From: an uncultured delta proteobacterium
Lineage (GTDB): Bacteria; Desulfobacterota; Binatia; Binatales; Binataceae
Direction: 5' to 3'
Length of the DNA stretch: 64,000 nt
Assembly: GCA_963711565.1 (NCBI GenBank)
Contig: CAVQEQ010000004.1
Coordinates: forward strand, 736,001 to 800,000
Shown here piece after piece: positions 23,895 through 35,172 of this stretch (position 1 is the stretch's first letter; every line of letters begins with the position of its first letter). A program made the translations under genes and the position numbers. Below the pieces are notes generated by a model. That model did no database searches. It saw only the letters and a program-made list of their open reading frames with translations, and was not told the DNA's origin.

Positions 23895-24263
23895 ATGGCT
23901 GCGCAAGCAAAAATTCTGATCGTTGATGACGAGCGCGATCTCGTCGACGCGTACGTGCGGCTGCTCGAGCGCGCGGGCCATCGATGTCTCGCAGCATTCG
24001 ACGCAAACGAGGCGATCCAGCTAATCGACGCCGAGTCGCCTGACGTGGTGATTACTGACCTGAGCCTGCCCGACACCAGCGGCATCGAGATCATCCGTCA
24101 CGTGCGCGCGAAGTCGGCGTCCACGCCGATAATCGTGATGTCGGGCCACAACACGCCCGAACTAAACAACGCGGCGCACGCCGCCGGCGCGAACATCTCG
24201 CTCCTGAAGCCGGTCTCGATCGCCGAGTTGCAGCGGGTGATTGTCGAAGCGCTGGCGCGCTGA
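23895..24263 (+). CDS. Single-domain response regulator
   Basis: ILIVDDE, ITDLSLP, MSG, LLKP. Confidence 0.9.
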   Translation: MAAQAKILIVDDERDLVDAYVRLLERAGHRCLAAFDANEAIQLIDAESPDVVITDLSLPDTSGIEIIRHVRAKSASTPIIVMSGHNTPELNNAAHAAGANISLLKPVSIAELQRVIVEALAR

Positions 24264-24469
24264 ATCGAGCCTGTCGCTGCACCATCTGCTCATCGATAAA
24301 ATCGGAAGCTGATCCTCCGCCTAGTCGCCAAGCCTAAGCTCTTGTGCGCGAAAGCCGTCCAGACCGGAGAAGCAGGTACGGTTTCACGGACGGCCACACA
24401 TCTTCGGAACGCCTTGATTGAGTTGCATAGAAATAATATATTAGATATATCCAAGGAGCTAATGGATAT

Positions 24470-24949
24470 ATGGGATTTCAAATAGAAATCGACTTTGAAG
24501 TGAATCAGAGAATTTGGGCAGAAAGAAGGTCCGAGGAGGAGTCTGATAACGATGTAATCAGAAGGCTGTTGCGAATGTCGCCTAAAAATGGCGGCCGATC
24601 GCAGAAAGCGAGTGAATTCAGTTCCGAGAAAGGTGCTTGGGTATGGAAGGGAGTGACACTTCCTGCTCATACGCAACTGCGCATGGACTACCTAAGCCAG
24701 CGCTATCAAGGTGAGGTACGTGGAGATGGGAAATGGTGGATCAATGAGAGATTCTTCAGGACGCCCTCCGAAGCAGCAAAGAGCTTGGCGCGTACTCGCG
24801 AAGGGAAGGAACCAAGCCTTGATGGTTGGAAGTATTGGTACGTAAAGCGGCCATCAGACCGAGATTGGATTCTGGTGGATGAGTTCAGAAAAGGTCTCGG
24901 CAATGGCCGCCCACACAAGAAGCCATCTATGGAGGATCGGAGTATTTGA
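24470..24949 (+). CDS. Hypothetical protein: SeqA_N-like ribbon-helix-helix plus RAMA/DUF4357-like domain
   Basis: IEIDFEV...ESDNDVIRRLL N-terminus; FRTPSEAA...DGWKYW C-terminus; lower GC, aaggag RBS. Confidence 0.55.
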   Translation: MGFQIEIDFEVNQRIWAERRSEEESDNDVIRRLLRMSPKNGGRSQKASEFSSEKGAWVWKGVTLPAHTQLRMDYLSQRYQGEVRGDGKWWINERFFRTPSEAAKSLARTREGKEPSLDGWKYWYVKRPSDRDWILVDEFRKGLGNGRPHKKPSMEDRSI

Positions 24950-24984
24950 TCGCTCAACAGAAACGTAGGTATCCCAGGGCGCGG

Positions 24985-25113
24985 GCGGCGCTGACCTCTC
25001 GCTCCTGAAGCCGGTCTCGATCGTCGCGCTGCAACGCGTAATCATCGAAGCCCTCGCACGCTGAATTGCTGCGGCGCGGGCGGCAGTTTGCTCGGCGACA
25101 ATCGGAAGCTCAT
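24985..25113 (+). repeat. Diverged copy of the response-regulator 3' end and downstream sequence (original about 24183-24313)
   Basis: tctcgctcctgaagccggtctcgatcg is identical in both; translations VSIAELQRVIVEALAR* and VSIVALQRVIIEALAR*; both followed by aatcggaagct. Confidence 0.85.
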
Positions 25114-25124
25114 CGTTCAATTTC

Positions 25125-25688
25125 ATGGCACCGGGCGACCAAACTACCCGAGTTTTTCGCAATGTTACGATCGAGGGCAGGATCTACGACCTGTCGCACC
25201 TCGACCAGTTCACGTTCGAGTTCGTGGTGCCCGAAAAGGACGGAAGACCACGGCAAGCATATGGAATTGACGTCCTGTTCAGCTGGCACTGTTTTACCCG
25301 CGGAATAGCAGAAGGCGAACACCTCCCGGAGGCCTTGGCTTACAGTCGTGGCCGCGAGACTCGCCTGTTCGACGAGCGTCGCTATCGTTTCTCACGGCAA
25401 CTGCCGAGCATTATTAGAGGCATTGGCACGCGAAAATGCTTCCACTCCGGCAAAGGCAATTTCTTCACGGTCGAGCTTACAGACGAGGAAGGAAGCCGAA
25501 TCGACTATACTATCTTCTTCAAAGTTTCACGGACCGCAAAGCGAGGTGCGCTAACTCTCCGCGTAGAGAGTGCCTATGCCCGAGACAACAGAGTGCCGCT
25601 TGGGCGCTCGCGGCCGCCGCGGCCCATTCGCTTTTCGGTCATTGCGTACAACACCGCAACAGGTAAGCCAATCAAGGAGCCGAAATGA
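25125..25688 (+). CDS. YjaZ/HtrC-like protein (putative RNase/toxin)
   Basis: YDLSHL, FSWHCFT, R-x-F-x3-RY, LRVESAY and FSVIAYN resemble E. coli YjaZ as recalled. Confidence 0.6.
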   Translation: MAPGDQTTRVFRNVTIEGRIYDLSHLDQFTFEFVVPEKDGRPRQAYGIDVLFSWHCFTRGIAEGEHLPEALAYSRGRETRLFDERRYRFSRQLPSIIRGIGTRKCFHSGKGNFFTVELTDEEGSRIDYTIFFKVSRTAKRGALTLRVESAYARDNRVPLGRSRPPRPIRFSVIAYNTATGKPIKEPK

Positions 25689-25714
25689 AAAAGGCCCTTC
25701 GTAGAAGGACCTTT
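25688..25714 (-). terminator. Rho-independent terminator of the putative ncRNA (possibly bidirectional)
   Basis: Minus strand AAGGUCCUUC-UAC-GAAGGGCCUU followed by UUU. Confidence 0.75.
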
Positions 25715-25813
25715 CTCTGAATTCCGCTGGGAACCTCTTGGCTATCACCACACTTGGGTGGAGACCGGAATACCGGCGGGCGAGCGCTTGCACCCAGCTT
25801 AGGCGCTCTTGAT
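25688..25813 (-). ncRNA. Putative structured ncRNA of about 125 nt, convergent with the yjaZ-like gene
   Basis: Own promoter; GAGCGC/GCGCUC stem whose loop UGGGUG can pair with downstream CACCCA; intrinsic terminator. Confidence 0.6.
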
Positions 25814-25818
25814 CAGGG

Positions 25819-25847
25819 AATATAACAAATGCGCCTGTTTCAAACAA
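25819..25847 (-). promoter_or_regulatory. Sigma70 extended -10 promoter for the putative ncRNA
   Basis: TTGTTT (25847-25842), 17 bp, TGt-TATATT (25824-25819). Confidence 0.6.
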
Positions 25848-25859
25848 ACCCAAGTTGAG

Positions 25860-26984
25860 TTACAGCGTGCGTTTGAAGGAGACGCTGGCGAGGATCAGCA
25901 TCAGCAACATGAAGATCAGCAGGAATGCTATGTCGCCGCTTACGGCGGTGAAGTCGGCGCCTTTGAAGAGGATCTGTTTGATTGCGCTTACTGAGTGAGT
26001 TTCGGGATTGAAGCGGGCGAAAGTTCGCAGCCACGGCGGGAAGCTTTCGACCGGATAGATCGCGCCGCTCGGGAAGAACAGGATCACGTTCAGAAATCCC
26101 GAGAACGTTCCCACCAGGCGCGGATGGCCCGCGCGGCCGAGCATCGAGAACGTCATCGCGAGCAGGCCGGTCGCGCTGATGATGATTATCCCGATCAGCA
26201 TCAACAGCGCCGTCGGGCCGCCGAGGATTCGCCCGCGCGTGATCATCAGTCCCAGGAACAAGACCAGGATGCCGCCGATGCTGGTCACCGTCACGCCGCT
26301 GGCCAGGATGCCGCCGGCGATGTCCCAGCGCGAAAGCGGAGTCACCAGGTAGCATTCGGTGACGCCCATGAATTTATCCATCACCCAGTTGAACACGCCG
26401 GACATCAGCGAGCCCATGAAGATCGCCATCACGATGACGCCGGGGATAAGCGAGCGATCGTAGTCAACGTACGGGAACAGCCAACTCGGGCGCAGTGAGA
26501 TCTCGTTGAGCTTGGGCTCGCGCGCGGTCACGAAGGTGACTCTCACGGTTGCGGCGGCCGAGTCGAGCACGCTTTCAAGGGTTTCCGAACTGACGCTGTC
26601 GACGTTGTCGGTGAACAATCCGATCTGCGCGATGCGGCCCTCGGCAACGTCGTGGCTGAAGTCGGGCGGGATGACGACGACGCCCTTGTAGAGCCCGTCG
26701 CGGACTTCGTCAACTGCGTTGCCCGGGTCGCTCTCGAAGGTGAGGTCGACGGTCTTCGGTCCCGCCTGCAACGCGAGCAACTGTTCGACGATGCGGCGCG
26801 CATAGAGTCCGTGATCCTGCGAGACGACGACGACGGGCAGGTGCTTGAGCTGGCCCTGGAACGAGTTGCCGATGATCACAAGATAAACGATCGGCATCAG
26901 GATGACGGAGATGAGCGTGATGGGATTGCGCGTCAGCTTCTTCAAGTCGCGGCGCATGATGGCGAGGAATTTGAGCCCGAACAT
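25860..26984 (-). CDS. ABC-2 type transporter permease
   Basis: N-terminal TM, periplasmic loop, FFPSGAIYPVESFPPWL. Confidence 0.88.
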   Translation of the reverse strand: MFGLKFLAIMRRDLKKLTRNPITLISVILMPIVYLVIIGNSFQGQLKHLPVVVVSQDHGLYARRIVEQLLALQAGPKTVDLTFESDPGNAVDEVRDGLYKGVVVIPPDFSHDVAEGRIAQIGLFTDNVDSVSSETLESVLDSAAATVRVTFVTAREPKLNEISLRPSWLFPYVDYDRSLIPGVIVMAIFMGSLMSGVFNWVMDKFMGVTECYLVTPLSRWDIAGGILASGVTVTSIGGILVLFLGLMITRGRILGGPTALLMLIGIIIISATGLLAMTFSMLGRAGHPRLVGTFSGFLNVILFFPSGAIYPVESFPPWLRTFARFNPETHSVSAIKQILFKGADFTAVSGDIAFLLIFMLLMLILASVSFKRTL

Positions 26985-26994
26985 CGCGTCCTCC

Positions 26995-28002
26995 TCAGCG
27001 CTGCTGCGGCATCCCGGCGCCGACGAACAGGCTGACCTTTTTGGCCGGCTCGTCGCGGAGCGTGCGCCCGGTGAAATGGATGAAGACGTCTTCGAGCGAG
27101 AGCTTCTGCACGGTGATCGAAGTCACGCGATCGCCGGCGTGTTCGATGGCCTCGAGGATTTTCGGAATCGCGTGCGCCCCGTCGTTGGACGAAAGTTGCA
27201 GGCGGTTTCCGCCGTCGAGATTCACCTCGCGCAGATAGGGCATCGGCTTCAGCATGTCGGCGATAGCGGCCGGATTTTTTTCGACCACGAGATCGATTCG
27301 GTCCGCGCCAGGCACCATCGATTTGAGTCCGATTGGCGTGTCGAGCGCGATTATCTTGCCGCCGTCGACGATTGCGATCCGATCGCAGAGCGACTCGGCC
27401 TCGTCCATGTAATGCGTGGTGAGCGAGATGGTGATCTCGCTTTCCTTGCGCAGAGTTTCGAGCAAATCCCACACGGCGCGGCGGCTTTGCGGGTCGAGTC
27501 CGATAGTCGGCTCGTCGAGGAACAGCACGTCGGGCGAATGAATCAGGCCGCGCGCGATTTCGAGCCGGCGGCGCATCCCGCCCGAGTACGTGGCGACGAG
27601 ATCGTTGGCGCGCTCGGTCAGCCCGACCATGTGCAACAGGCGATGACCGCGTTCGCGGCGCTCGCGGCGCGACAGGCCGAAGAACTCGCCGTAAATGTCG
27701 ACGTTCTCCCATCCGGTGAGATCGAGATCGGAGGTGAGCGCCTGCGGGATGACGCCGATATTCTCGCGTACCTGGCGCGGATGACGCGCGACGTCGAAGC
27801 CGGCGACGAACGCCTGGCCGCCGCTCGGCGTTATCAACGTCGTCAGCATCCGCACCACGGTCGTCTTGCCTGCGCCGTTGGGGCCGAGCAGCCCGAAGAC
27901 CTCGCCACGGCGGACCTCGAAGTTGACCTTGTCAACGGCGGTGAAAGTGCCGAACCGCTTAGTCAGGTCTTTGGTTTGTATTGCTGCTGAGTCGGGTTCC
28001 AT
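26995..28002 (-). CDS. ABC transporter ATP-binding protein (DrrA-like)
   Basis: GPNGAGKT, YSGGMRRR, FLDEPT. Confidence 0.92.
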   Translation of the reverse strand: MEPDSAAIQTKDLTKRFGTFTAVDKVNFEVRRGEVFGLLGPNGAGKTTVVRMLTTLITPSGGQAFVAGFDVARHPRQVRENIGVIPQALTSDLDLTGWENVDIYGEFFGLSRRERRERGHRLLHMVGLTERANDLVATYSGGMRRRLEIARGLIHSPDVLFLDEPTIGLDPQSRRAVWDLLETLRKESEITISLTTHYMDEAESLCDRIAIVDGGKIIALDTPIGLKSMVPGADRIDLVVEKNPAAIADMLKPMPYLREVNLDGGNRLQLSSNDGAHAIPKILEAIEHAGDRVTSITVQKLSLEDVFIHFTGRTLRDEPAKKVSLFVGAGMPQQR

Positions 28003-29975: not shown

Positions 29976-30296
29976 ATGTCCGACTATGCTGCCAAAGTTG
30001 CAACCCTTAAGTCTGAGCGGGCAAAGCTTGCTCAACGGCAATCGGAGCTCGCCGCCCAGCGCCGTGAGGAAATCGGCCGACTCGCCGAGAGACTCGGCAC
30101 ACTCGAAATCGATGACGACGTGCTTGCCGGCATGTTCCTCGAATTGAAATCCGCAAAGGAGGGAGATGGCTCGCGTCTCAAGCAATTGCGAGACGTGGGC
30201 TGCCGGTTTCGTTCTCCCAAGCCTGAGCGCGCTAAGCGACACCCCGCGGATGCTGCGGCGCACGCGAACGGCACTGATTCGAATCGAAGCGTGTAG
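29976..30296 (+). CDS. traC: Ti-type conjugal transfer accessory protein, TraC-like
   Basis: Coiled coil, EIGRLAERLGTLEIDDDVL; position before traD; gaggagg RBS. Confidence 0.55.
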   Translation: MSDYAAKVATLKSERAKLAQRQSELAAQRREEIGRLAERLGTLEIDDDVLAGMFLELKSAKEGDGSRLKQLRDVGCRFRSPKPERAKRHPADAAAHANGTDSNRSV

Positions 30297-30303
30297 GGCA
30301 CGT

Positions 30304-30507
30304 ATGAGTCACGAAGAACGCAAACTCGAGACGCGACGAAAGATTGCGATGGGAGGCCTCGTCATCAAAGCGGGGCTCGACCACGAGGAACCTGCAGTGC
30401 TGCTCGGCATGCTCATGTCGGCGGCCCGCGTCCTGTCGAGCGCTAACGCGGATGAGCACCGCAAGCGATGGCGAGAGCACGGTGACTCGGCCTTCAAAAG
30501 AGTGTGA
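30304..30507 (+). CDS. traD: Ti-type conjugal transfer protein TraD
   Basis: ERKLETRRKIAMGGLVIKAGL...LLGML...G. Confidence 0.8.
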   Translation: MSHEERKLETRRKIAMGGLVIKAGLDHEEPAVLLGMLMSAARVLSSANADEHRKRWREHGDSAFKRV

Positions 30508-30510
30508 ATC

Positions 30511-32484
30511 ATGCAACATCCGATAGTCATGGTTGCGACGCTGGCGCTTGTGCTGGGCCTGCTCTGCGTGACGGAAGTTCGCGAGAGCTGGGTCGGGTGG
30601 TTCGCTCGCGGCGTGTTCTGGTTCGGGATCACGATCCTGAGCCGCGACTACGCGAACGTCTGTGTAATGCGTCTCACCGCGAGCACAGCGTCCCCGTATT
30701 GGCGCTTCGTCATCGCACGCTCGTCTGTGACCGCAGAGGCTGTTGCCCCAGCGCTTCTGCTTCTCGGCACAATCGCGCTGCTTGAGGCCCGTGTCGTTGG
30801 GCGAGGGACCGTCTTTCTCGGCGCCGGCGCGACGCTCTGCTCGGGCATGCTGACGGGATGGCATGAAGTCTCACGCCTCGTGGGCTACTACCCCGCTTAT
30901 CCGGTTTCAACACTTGTCGGCTCAATGGATCCTTATGCGCAGGGTGGTTTCTATCTAGCGTTTTTCTCGGCCTTTCTCGCGATTAAAAAGGCCCGCAGGG
31001 CACCGGAAACCCGGTCTACGTGGCAGCGGTCGCCGTCCAGCCTTCACGGCACCAGCGACTGGATGCCGATGAGCACTGCGCGGCGGATGTTCCAAACTGG
31101 CGGCATCATTGTCGGCGAGGCGTACAGGCCGGATCGTGACCCGAAGCTTGGAGGCCAGGCTCCGTTGCTTCGCTACGATGGCAAGGTCGGCTCCGGGCAC
31201 TGTCTCGTCTTCGCCGGTTCGGGCGGCTACAAAACCACCGGGGTCGGAGTTCCGTGTGCGTTAGAGTGGAGCAGTGCTCTCGTTTACCTCGATCCTTCCG
31301 CAGAAGTCTTTCCGATCGTTCGCGCGTCGCGCGACGCGTTGGGCCATCGCGTGGTTTCTCTGAATCCGGAGGAAGGGCGCGGCGGATTCAACGTTCTCGA
31401 TTGGATCGATACCTCCGCGGATCGAAGCTTGATGGATATCCAGGCCGTGGTTGCATGGCTCGCAGGCGAGCAGCCTGCGGAACGCTATGACGACTACTTC
31501 AAACACGCGGCGCGAGCGCTGCTCGGGTGTCTTCTCGCGGATATCCTGTTTGCTCCTGGATTGCTTCCGGAAGAGAAGACGCTGACGCTTCTTCGCAAGC
31601 GGGTTGCGCTCCCGATCCCGGAGCTTCGGCAGCTTCTCGACGACATCTACGCCAAGGGCGATTCGTACGGCTTCGGTTTTCCGGCCCAGCTCGCTGGTAA
31701 TCTCAAAGACATCACCGAAAAGCAGTTTTCCGGGTTTTATGGCGAGGCCGGAAACCTCACTGCATGGCTCGCGGTGCCTTCACTGGCGCGATTGGTTTGC
31801 GGGTCATCTTTCCAGACGCGAGACATTCTGTCGGGCAGACTCGACGTGTTCATCAACGTTCCGCTCAAAGTCTTGCAGAGCAATCCGCAGGTCTGCCGCC
31901 TGATCCTTGGCGCGTTGCTGAATGCCGCGTACGAAGCACGAGGGGACCTGGGTGGGCGGATTCTGTTCGTGCTCGATGAGGTTGCGCGCCTCGGCTATAT
32001 GGGAATCCTCGAGACGGCTCGCGACGCCGGCCGCAAATACGGAATCAACCTGGTCCTGATGTACCAATCGCTCGGTCAGATGACCGGCACTTGGGGCCCG
32101 CAGGGGCGGCAGGCTTGGTTCGACTCGTCTTACTTGAAGTTGTTCGCCTGCCTTCACGACGTTGGTGCAGCGGAGTTTCTGTCAAAGGCGTGCGGGGAGT
32201 TCACGGCGGTCTCCGAGGGCTACACACATGGGTCAGGCACTTCGACCGGATCGGCGACCTCAAAGAGCAGCAGCACCCACGAGACGACCAGCGAGCAGCA
32301 GCTTGTGCGCCGGCTGATCAAGCCCGAAGAGATCCTTCAGACGCTTCGGTACGACGAGCAGATTGTCCTCATTTCGAATTGCCGTCCACTGCGATGTGGC
32401 CGGGCAATCTACTTCCGCAGGCCGAAAATGCTGACTCGTACGCAGTCCGACGAACTCCAGCAAATTAGACAAATCGCGAGATAG
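30511..32484 (+). CDS. traG: Type IV coupling protein TraG/VirD4 (Ti-type)
   Basis: TM segments, FAGSGGYKT, FVLDEVARLG, GRKYGI, YQSLGQ, RLIKPEEI. Confidence 0.9.
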   Translation: MQHPIVMVATLALVLGLLCVTEVRESWVGWFARGVFWFGITILSRDYANVCVMRLTASTASPYWRFVIARSSVTAEAVAPALLLLGTIALLEARVVGRGTVFLGAGATLCSGMLTGWHEVSRLVGYYPAYPVSTLVGSMDPYAQGGFYLAFFSAFLAIKKARRAPETRSTWQRSPSSLHGTSDWMPMSTARRMFQTGGIIVGEAYRPDRDPKLGGQAPLLRYDGKVGSGHCLVFAGSGGYKTTGVGVPCALEWSSALVYLDPSAEVFPIVRASRDALGHRVVSLNPEEGRGGFNVLDWIDTSADRSLMDIQAVVAWLAGEQPAERYDDYFKHAARALLGCLLADILFAPGLLPEEKTLTLLRKRVALPIPELRQLLDDIYAKGDSYGFGFPAQLAGNLKDITEKQFSGFYGEAGNLTAWLAVPSLARLVCGSSFQTRDILSGRLDVFINVPLKVLQSNPQVCRLILGALLNAAYEARGDLGGRILFVLDEVARLGYMGILETARDAGRKYGINLVLMYQSLGQMTGTWGPQGRQAWFDSSYLKLFACLHDVGAAEFLSKACGEFTAVSEGYTHGSGTSTGSATSKSSSTHETTSEQQLVRRLIKPEEILQTLRYDEQIVLISNCRPLRCGRAIYFRRPKMLTRTQSDELQQIRQIAR

Positions 32485-32535
32485 CTGCAGAAAGGAGCAG
32501 GGTGCCGGGAGCCTGAAAATCACGGAGCGAAGCGG

Positions 32536-32565
32536 AGTGCGCACTTATATGTCGCAGGCGACATA
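32536..32565 (-). other. oriT: MOBQ-type oriT
   Basis: Minus strand TATGTCGC-ct-GCGACATA hairpin followed by TAAGTGCGCACT, like the RSF1010-family nic consensus TAAGTGCGCCCT. Confidence 0.8.
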
Positions 32566-32604
32566 GCGCGGGATAGAGACGGCGCGGACGCAGATTCGAC
32601 GCAA

Positions 32605-35172
32605 ATGGCAATCTATCACTTCACAGCGAAAGTCATCAGCCGAAGCAAGGGGCGAAGCGCCGTTGCGGCTGCCGCGTATCGCTCGGGCTCGAAACTCCAC
32701 GATGCCCGCCAAGACATGAACTTCGACTACACCCAGAAATCGGAGGTCGTGTTCTCCGAGATTCTAGTACCCGAGGGCGCACCGGCCTGGATGGCCAATC
32801 GCGAGACGCTTTGGAACGCGGTCGAGGCCGGCGAGAAACGCAAAGACGCTCAACTCGCACGCGATATCGAATTCGCTTTGCCGCAGGAGCTCAGCAGCGT
32901 ACAAGCCATCGCTCTGGCGCGCGACTTCGTCCGACGCGAGTTCGTCGCTCGCGGCATGATCGCCGATCTGAACGTTCACTGGGAGCCGGATAATCCGCAC
33001 GTCCACCTGATGCTCACAATGCGCGAGGTGAGCGAGAGCGGTTTCGGCGTCAAAGTCACGGAATGGAACAAGGTTGCTCTGCTCCAAGAGTGGCGCGAGC
33101 GCTGGGCCGACTTGGCCAACGAACACCTGCTCCGCGCTGGCCACGACGTTCGGATCGATAACCGCAGCTACAGGGACCAAGGCGTCGAACTGGAGCCGAC
33201 GAGTCACCTCGGCAAGGCGGTCGAGGAGATGGACGCGCGCGGTCAGTACGCCGAGCGAGCCCAGCAGTTCGAGGAGGTGCGCGAAAGAAACGCGCGGCGG
33301 ATCGAACGGCGGCCGGAGATCGTGCTGGAGAATCTGACGCGCCAGCGTTCGACGTTCACGCGCAACGAGATCGCGCGCGAAGTGTTCCGCTGCATCGACG
33401 ATGGCGAACGCTTCCGGAACCTGATGGCGCGACTCGAAGGCTCGCGCGAACTGGCGGTCCTGACGCCCAATTTGATCCGAGACGGCGAGGTGATCGAGCC
33501 CGCTCGGTGCACGACGCGCACGATGCTGGCGATAGAAGCGCGGCTGGCCGAGACCGCTCAGCAAATGGCCACCAGTGAGAGCCATCCAGTGAGCAGGCGG
33601 AACGTCGAAGAGACGCTCAAGAGGCACGACCATTTGAGCGAGGAGCAGAAGGCTTCCGTGAAGGCGATGACAAGTGCGCGACAGATCGAGGCGATTGCCG
33701 GTTTCGCGGGTTCCGGAAAGTCGAAGGCTATCGAAGCCGCCCGCGAGGCGTGGCAGGCGGAAGGCTATCGCGTGATCGGCTCCGCGCTAGCCGGGATCGC
33801 CGCCGAGAACCTGAGCCGTGAGAGCGGAGTCGAAAGCCGGACGCTCGCATCGTGGGAACACTCTTGGCTGCGGGAACGAGAACAGCTCAGCGCGCGGTGT
33901 GTTCTGGTCGTCGACGAGGCCGGAATGGTTGGAAGCAAACAGCTTGAGCGCGTGCTGTCCGAGGCGAAACGGCAGGGTGCTAAGGTCGTGCTCGTGGGCG
34001 ACGCCGAACAGCTCCAGCCCATTGAGGCAGGCGCGGCGTTCCGCGCGATAGCCGAGCGCGTCGGCCACCAGGAACTCACGGCGATCCGCCGCCAACGGGA
34101 CCAGTGGCAGCGTGACGCGAGCCAGGACTTCGCGCGCGGCGAACCAGCCCATGCGCTTGAGCGATATCAGACGCACGGTGCCGTTGGATTTGCCGAGAGC
34201 AGGAGCGAGGCTAAGCGACGGCTTATTGAAGAGTGGGCTAAGCACCTTGCTGCCGAACCTGACGGAAACATGCTGATTCTCGCGCACAGCCGAGCGGACG
34301 TGAGAGACCTGAACGACCGGGCGCGGCAGATTCTTCGCGAACGTGGTGGGCTTGGGGAAGATGTATCCATCACGGTGAGCCGCGAGGTCATGCAGCCCGA
34401 CGGAACGGTCGCGATCGAACGCTCAGAGCGAATTCTCGCGCCTGGTGACCGGGTGATGTTTCTCAAGAACAACCGAGATCTCGCGGTGAAGAACGGCTCG
34501 CTCGGAACCGTCACAGAGTTTGCAAGCGGCGCAATTGCGGTGCGGCTGGACGCCAAGGAAGGGCGAGAAGTCGAGTTTCGACTGGACGACTATTCCGCAC
34601 TCGACCACGGCTACGCCGCGACGATCCACAAGGCGCAGGGAGCTACAGTGGAAAGGGCCTTCGTGCTGGCGACACCAGGAATGGACCGGCACCTCGCCTA
34701 CGTCGCGATGACCCGTCATCGGGAGCAGGCGGAAATCTATTTCAGCCGGGAGGATTTCCCGAACTTCGAGGTTCTCAAGGAGCGTCTATCGCGTGAACGA
34801 ATGAAGGACACGACGCTCGATTACGCCGAGCGCCGCGGCCTTGAAGTGAGCGCGTCGAATGCACGGCGCGACAATGTGAATGTTCCAGAACGTGATCCGA
34901 TCGAGCATTTTAAGAAGACTCAACAGGAGTTCATCCATACCGCCAGCAGAGCTGATCTCGATCTGGTCGCCAAGCCGCGCGTGGCCGAACTGCGCCAGGA
35001 GATGAAACAGAGCGCTCAGGAAATCGCCAAGGACTCAGCCCTCATGCGCGAGGCGGAGCGCGCAGGAATCTCGACTCAAATCAGAAATTTCGCGAGACAG
35101 AATCAGTACGAAACGAGTCAGGACCAGGTGAAACATCGAGTGCCCGACAGAGACGATTCTTTGGAGAAGTGA
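32605..35172 (+). CDS. traA: Ti-type relaxase TraA (MobA/MobL plus RecD-like helicase)
   Basis: MAIYH, SAVAAAAYR, NPHVHLMLT, GFAGSGKS, VDEAGMV, HKAQGATV. Confidence 0.93.
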   Translation: MAIYHFTAKVISRSKGRSAVAAAAYRSGSKLHDARQDMNFDYTQKSEVVFSEILVPEGAPAWMANRETLWNAVEAGEKRKDAQLARDIEFALPQELSSVQAIALARDFVRREFVARGMIADLNVHWEPDNPHVHLMLTMREVSESGFGVKVTEWNKVALLQEWRERWADLANEHLLRAGHDVRIDNRSYRDQGVELEPTSHLGKAVEEMDARGQYAERAQQFEEVRERNARRIERRPEIVLENLTRQRSTFTRNEIAREVFRCIDDGERFRNLMARLEGSRELAVLTPNLIRDGEVIEPARCTTRTMLAIEARLAETAQQMATSESHPVSRRNVEETLKRHDHLSEEQKASVKAMTSARQIEAIAGFAGSGKSKAIEAAREAWQAEGYRVIGSALAGIAAENLSRESGVESRTLASWEHSWLREREQLSARCVLVVDEAGMVGSKQLERVLSEAKRQGAKVVLVGDAEQLQPIEAGAAFRAIAERVGHQELTAIRRQRDQWQRDASQDFARGEPAHALERYQTHGAVGFAESRSEAKRRLIEEWAKHLAAEPDGNMLILAHSRADVRDLNDRARQILRERGGLGEDVSITVSREVMQPDGTVAIERSERILAPGDRVMFLKNNRDLAVKNGSLGTVTEFASGAIAVRLDAKEGREVEFRLDDYSALDHGYAATIHKAQGATVERAFVLATPGMDRHLAYVAMTRHREQAEIYFSREDFPNFEVLKERLSRERMKDTTLDYAERRGLEVSASNARRDNVNVPERDPIEHFKKTQQEFIHTASRADLDLVAKPRVAELRQEMKQSAQEIAKDSALMREAERAGISTQIRNFARQNQYETSQDQVKHRVPDRDDSLEK

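Follow-up and report, generated by a model that had tools for sequence, protein, structure and literature searches.

The window, a 64,000-nt stretch of a contig from an uncultured delta proteobacterium of the Binataceae (CAVQEQ010000004.1, positions 736,001 to 800,000), contains a YjaZ-family gene that lies tail to tail with a predicted structured non-coding RNA (ncRNA) (Table 1). A 171-bp gap separates the 187-aa open reading frame (ORF), which was verified, from the end of an ABC gene at 25860. The minus strand of this gap holds a promoter-like site, a core of ~95 nt and a 14-bp terminator hairpin with a U-run adjoining the stop codon, and a CCGG hairpin lies in the RNA; these elements of the transcription unit described in an earlier sequence-only reading of this DNA are present, the unit itself being a putative one. 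The generic promoter and terminator scan did not list the RNA promoter, the −35 box of which matches at 3/6 positions, nor the minus-strand terminator; it listed the same terminator hairpin on the plus strand. The promoter-like site is supported by conservation, because the same site (TT-led −35, spacing of 16-18 nt, TAnnnT) is kept at the same place just 5′ of the RNA in 40 of the 58 non-identical loci; random windows showed the pattern at a rate of 1%, and upstream windows after shuffling at a rate of 5%. The folding z-score of the whole RNA, to which the terminator contributes much, is −3.87, and none of 200 shuffles was as stable. The YjaZ-family gene itself has no evident promoter and no strong ribosome-binding site here. 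Rfam 15 covariance models at gathering score, that of sroH included, gave no match in window positions 24000-27000 nor in 20 homologous loci; the RNA is a structured class absent from Rfam 15.

Table 1 Features of the YjaZ-family gene and its convergent RNA in the window
Feature	Position	Strand	Remarks
YjaZ-family protein gene	25125..25688	+	187 aa; BECR-like core predicted at about residues 45-157; His55 invariant
Predicted ncRNA	25688..25813	-	~125 nt with the terminator; ends placed by the promoter and terminator positions
Sigma70-like RNA promoter, TTGTTT-17 nt-TATATT	25819..25847	-	TTGTTT 25847-25842, TATATT 25824-25819; position conserved in homologues
P1 stem GAGCGC/GCGCUC	25782..25808	-	25808-25803 with 25787-25782; loop carries the pseudoknot 5′ strand (25798-25793)
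P2 hairpin	25764..25777	-	From fold and comparative alignment
P3 hairpin	25748..25761	-	Conserved loop CCAAGU (25757-25752); candidate protein-contact site
3′ tail	25726..25735	-	P0, 25735-25734 with 25780-25779 (2 bp, closes the junction); pseudoknot 3′ strand 25731-25726
Intrinsic terminator hairpin between gene and RNA	25687..25717	both	Strong U-run on the RNA strand, a weaker one on the mRNA strand
Islet missing in congener G204	24265..25861	.	Holds the module and an accessory RAMA/SeqA-like gene (24470-24949)

The RNA is carried by 75 of the 81 homologous loci, in 74 of them convergently. In the remaining one (L074, 2114-2216) the RNA, with promoter-like site and terminator, stands on the gene's own strand, hence convergence is not required. 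Of the six loci without the RNA, five are cut off at the stop codon or no more than 34 nt from it, which leaves L082 as a true miss. The profile behind this count drew on 57 sequences from that set, which is why held-out tests matter: from 282 plasmid records, 20 loci were chosen to cover a broad taxonomic range, and model R1 found the RNA in 10 of them (E < 0.02) and in four of five new genome loci. With the wider model R2, L106 was gained (E 4e-4) and weak matches came up at the expected place in L107, L108, L100, L103 and L104. Neither model matched at L105, L109, L111, L112, L082 or L123.

In an alignment of 55 distinct sequences (A2), a structure of six helices (P1, an inner hairpin, the pseudoknot, P0, P2 and P3) is paired in 92.8% of cells, and 25 of its 30 pairs have changed on both sides; none of 500 shuffles equalled this, a test inflated by relatedness and made on a structure derived from these very sequences, and slid controls reached 32-39%. 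A2 and a further alignment, A6, each include one row from the unpublished genome G304, and no claim depends on that row alone. The conserved, covarying RNA that the sequence-only reading expected in homologues is thus found, with a different knot. The UGGGUG/CACCCA pseudoknot it had drawn pairs in 48.6% of cells, a value reached by 310 of 500 shuffles, and CACCCA was rejected as a pseudoknot strand. It forms the 5′ strand and loop of the conserved hairpin P3. The supported pseudoknot joins GCUGGG in the P1 loop to CCCAGC in the 3′ tail (CGGA/UCCG in most homologues); it is 87.9% paired in A2, despite MAFFT misregistering the window's own clade, and on 23 distinct loop-tail types (duplicates and three rows with a misaligned 5′ part removed) the cognate pairing beat 2000 of 2000 permutations. 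The P3 loop CCAAGU is highly conserved. Nothing supports the suggested guide role, A2 showing no variable guide segment flanked by a fixed scaffold.

The assignment of the protein to the YjaZ family is borne out over its full length by PF27200 (Pfam), present in 97 of 97 homologues, by atlas clusters named YjaZ (score 0.96-0.97) and by a BLAST match to Escherichia coli YjaZ (E 6e-19, 28% identity across 172 aa). The NCBIfam YjaZ equivalog PRK09717 scored 47.6 bits (E 1.8e-12), under its curated cut-off of 324 bits. Sequence searches of Pfam, PADLOC, PHROGs and PDB with the protein returned nothing consistent, and an atlas search leaving out PF27200 gave no usable match. The structure model is a confident one (pLDDT 88) with nine strands but no more than three helices, and RelE-like chains rank at the top of the fold searches at low Z, which weakly suggests a RelE/BrnT-like (BECR) core and, of the nuclease-like character claimed earlier, upholds a predicted likeness of fold. 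Foldseek gave no match at E ≤ 0.001 against the pdb and viral sets, the weak viral rows being polyvalent proteins. ToxN and AbiF are absent among the VIA fold-search matches listed, which does not exclude either; no ToxN-type Pfam match was found for the protein.

In the congener G204 the response-regulator gene meets the ABC gene across 25 bp, with no module between them, and in the close relatives L003 and L086 the site holds the gene and the RNA alone, without the RAMA/SeqA-like gene. In many bacteria, gene and RNA occur side by side and come and go as a pair, and compensatory changes preserve the RNA fold, in agreement with the mobile two-part module that had been proposed. A YjaZ-family gene was found in none of 300 other genomes sampled from the phylum and in six of 400 genomes sampled from another class; plasmids, minimal ones among them, carry it in 282 records. 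At the window's own locus two copies of the response-regulator gene's 3′ end (24160-24320 and 24978-25115, ~80% identical) flank the RAMA/SeqA-like gene, which suggests that the latter is a second cassette captured at the same site.

In E. coli, yjaZ (htrC) and the small RNA gene sroH, itself an Rfam family, likewise lie tail to tail between convergent operons, here between rpoC and thiH. In six SroH-type RNAs the helices follow the order of the window RNA (P1, inner hairpin, pseudoknot, P0), P0 is changed on both sides between copies and the loop reads CAAAGU, CCAAGU or CCAAGC, whereas the RNA sequence has diverged. Model R1 misses SroH; R2, run on 241 nt selected to contain SroH, scores it at 7 bits (E 0.025) and, in a search of 15 loci, hit the expected place and strand in four of the six SroH-type loci (E 0.26-3.2). 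A blind topology score for SroH was insignificant (11 of 40 shuffles), and the blind search was dropped as support, having reached 0-2 of 40 shuffles for only four of 21 loci, one at the wrong site. The likeness to SroH noted earlier therefore stands for topology and weak model matches, not for a significant family match; SroH is likely a homologue of the window RNA. In 5426 E. coli genomes, yjaZ was found in 3738, sroH in 3740 and the unit in 3741; identity reaches 99% or more for sroH in 3734 of 3742 records and for yjaZ in 2943 of 3738. In E. coli strain 9000 (L132, 501-944) yjaZ is truncated to 147 aa and SroH is kept. In PMC5389530 the function of SroH is stated as unknown, full-length and processed forms are described, and an sroH deletion mutant is said to be sensitive to envelope stress (citing Hobbs 2010); PMC3318445 reports loss of sroH in several lineages. 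No paper linking yjaZ and SroH as one system was found, although subscription papers and supplementary motif lists, which lay outside the search, may hold one.

Viral scans found two full-length copies of the RNA in records without a YjaZ match, L131 and L254, which are 14% and 20% complete, respectively. The former (85.7 bits) belongs to a phage late region, with a transcriptional regulator gene on one side and HNH/terminase genes on the other. The latter (2429-2537, 67.8 bits) comes from a large AT-rich phage, where it is flanked by genes for Hsp20 and DNA polymerase; in both, the pseudoknot is kept through changed bases. The pair is present in full in a third viral record, L083. Five of seven viral candidate loci failed the RNA model; of the viral pattern scans, one pattern gave no locus and a loose one gave 120 in 3 of 64 parts, all of which failed the profile. 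Annotated phages held no further copy. In L131 (1457-1627) a degenerate second copy of the RNA was seen at 1566-1627.

We propose, with a probability of about 0.6, that gene and RNA act as a toxin-antitoxin or abortive-defence module akin to type III, and that the RNA would bind and silence a predicted RelE/BrnT-like ribonuclease; the module is likely undescribed and likely includes E. coli yjaZ and SroH. The RNA would be transcribed from its own promoter, in excess over the protein, and would fold as a junction of P2, P3 and P0, locked by the pseudoknot between P1 loop and 3′ tail, and would offer conserved single-stranded CCAAG motifs to the protein; the N- and C-terminal extensions of the protein could grip the RNA. 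Should host transcription stop, upon phage infection or loss of the element, decay of the RNA would free the RNase to arrest the cell, and the RNAs that phages carry without the gene would serve as antitoxin decoys. Several points weigh against this proposal: the fold-match scores are low, three full-length genes have no detectable RNA, the RNA of L040 is damaged, and the sroH deletion is reported to be viable. Moreover, three metatranscriptome runs with small shares gave no evidence that the RNA is expressed, the sole contig over it (185 nt, 25708-25892) taking in the promoter and the end of the ABC gene as well.

Like type III ToxIN, CptIN and TenpIN systems, the module combines a protein with a pseudoknotted RNA and occurs on plasmids and chromosomes, with an endoribonuclease role that is predicted here. 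In those systems, according to PMC12283969, tandem antitoxin repeats precede the toxin gene in the same operon and are set off from it by a terminator, whereas the window RNA is single, larger, multi-helix, downstream and on the opposite strand, and the predicted fold of the protein weakly resembles RelE/BrnT. The closest working analogy is AbiF/AbiFr, a type III system and Cas13 ancestor in which, according to PMC12737573, a single cis-encoded ncRNA binds and inhibits an RNase; AbiF, however, is a four-helix HEPN dimer, whereas the model of the window protein is strand-rich and its RNA matches no Rfam family. Type II RelE, ParE, HigB and BrnT (BECR) toxins use protein antitoxins, and none is conserved beside the YjaZ-family genes, where neighbours vary, no protein neighbour being common to more than eight loci and the largest upstream family occurring in 11 of 82. 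If our proposal holds, the module would work like AbiF or ToxIN and yet depart from their defining layout or fold. The orphan phage RNAs recall phage antitoxin mimics in being RNA copies in phage DNA without a toxin gene, and differ in being full-length single copies beside DNA-polymerase or packaging genes; they are candidate decoys. Pseudo-ToxI of phage TE is reportedly such a mimic.

The strict pairing and the compact conserved fold would suit any ribonucleoprotein, including a non-toxic one in which the protein binds or processes the RNA for another job, as a nuclease with an RNA cofactor or sensor or as a stabilised effector RNA. The phage orphan RNAs could act alone, and the viability of the sroH mutant fits such a role too; still, we regard it as unlikely, since the toxin-like fold neighbours, the carriage on minimal plasmids and the decay of genes while the RNA persists suit addiction better. 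Convergent 3′ overlap is known from Bacillus type I pairs, and the tail-to-tail layout with a shared hairpin, its U-run weaker on the mRNA strand, would allow the RNA to pair with the 3′ end of read-through mRNA and trigger its decay. Such antisense action is improbable: RNA core and coding sequence do not overlap (median gap 38 nt), L074 carries the RNA on the strand of the gene, the orphan copies have no cis target, and neither conserved pseudoknot nor loop motifs are needed for it. We give equally little credence to a ribozyme or mobility signal with a protein that aids cassette moves into terminators between convergent operons. The integrase-less insertion between convergent genes, here and at E. 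coli rpoC-thiH, and the compact, knotted fold with invariant bases are compatible with this, but no Rfam ribozyme matched, fold searches of the protein model found no recombinase-like fold, and the RNA has its own promoter-like site and terminator. That the region is merely 3′ UTR and terminator of the ABC operon, the outcome which the sequence-only reading had named as fatal to itself, is hardly credible: no terminator was found between the ABC gene end and the RNA, making read-through likely here, and the sole contig spans both, but comparative data contradict it, as G204 has the same operon without the RNA and homologous RNAs have unrelated upstream neighbours and promoter-like sites of their own.

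A toxin-antitoxin module of this kind would be a new RNA-antitoxin family on a fold known for protein antitoxins, and would give a testable function and structure to an E. coli y-gene and to SroH. The phage copies would point to RNA-based counter-defence, and by the precedent of AbiF, RNA-nuclease pairs can be raw material of programmable systems. The bolder view, that this is the first RelE/BrnT-fold nuclease under RNA control and a widespread anti-phage family of several phyla, YjaZ-SroH included, with phage decoys, we hold only tentatively.

A second YjaZ copy in the window's genome (L002, G000:C4:1137534-1137944) is 32% identical and divergent. It is followed by a convergent promoter-like site, hairpins and a terminator, judged by eye; this hairpin-rich unit has a candidate loop-tail pairing and is matched by neither R1 nor R2. 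In a subgroup of loci (L014, L017, L020, L021, L024, L030, L032, L033, L070, L093 and L094) a common gene stands directly upstream, annotated in L093 and L094 as helix-turn-helix or transcriptional regulator. In the window, genes for TraC/TraD-like proteins, a TraG coupling protein and a MobA/MobL relaxase-helicase (29976-35172) make up a mobilisable element 4 kb from the module, with core ABC genes in between.
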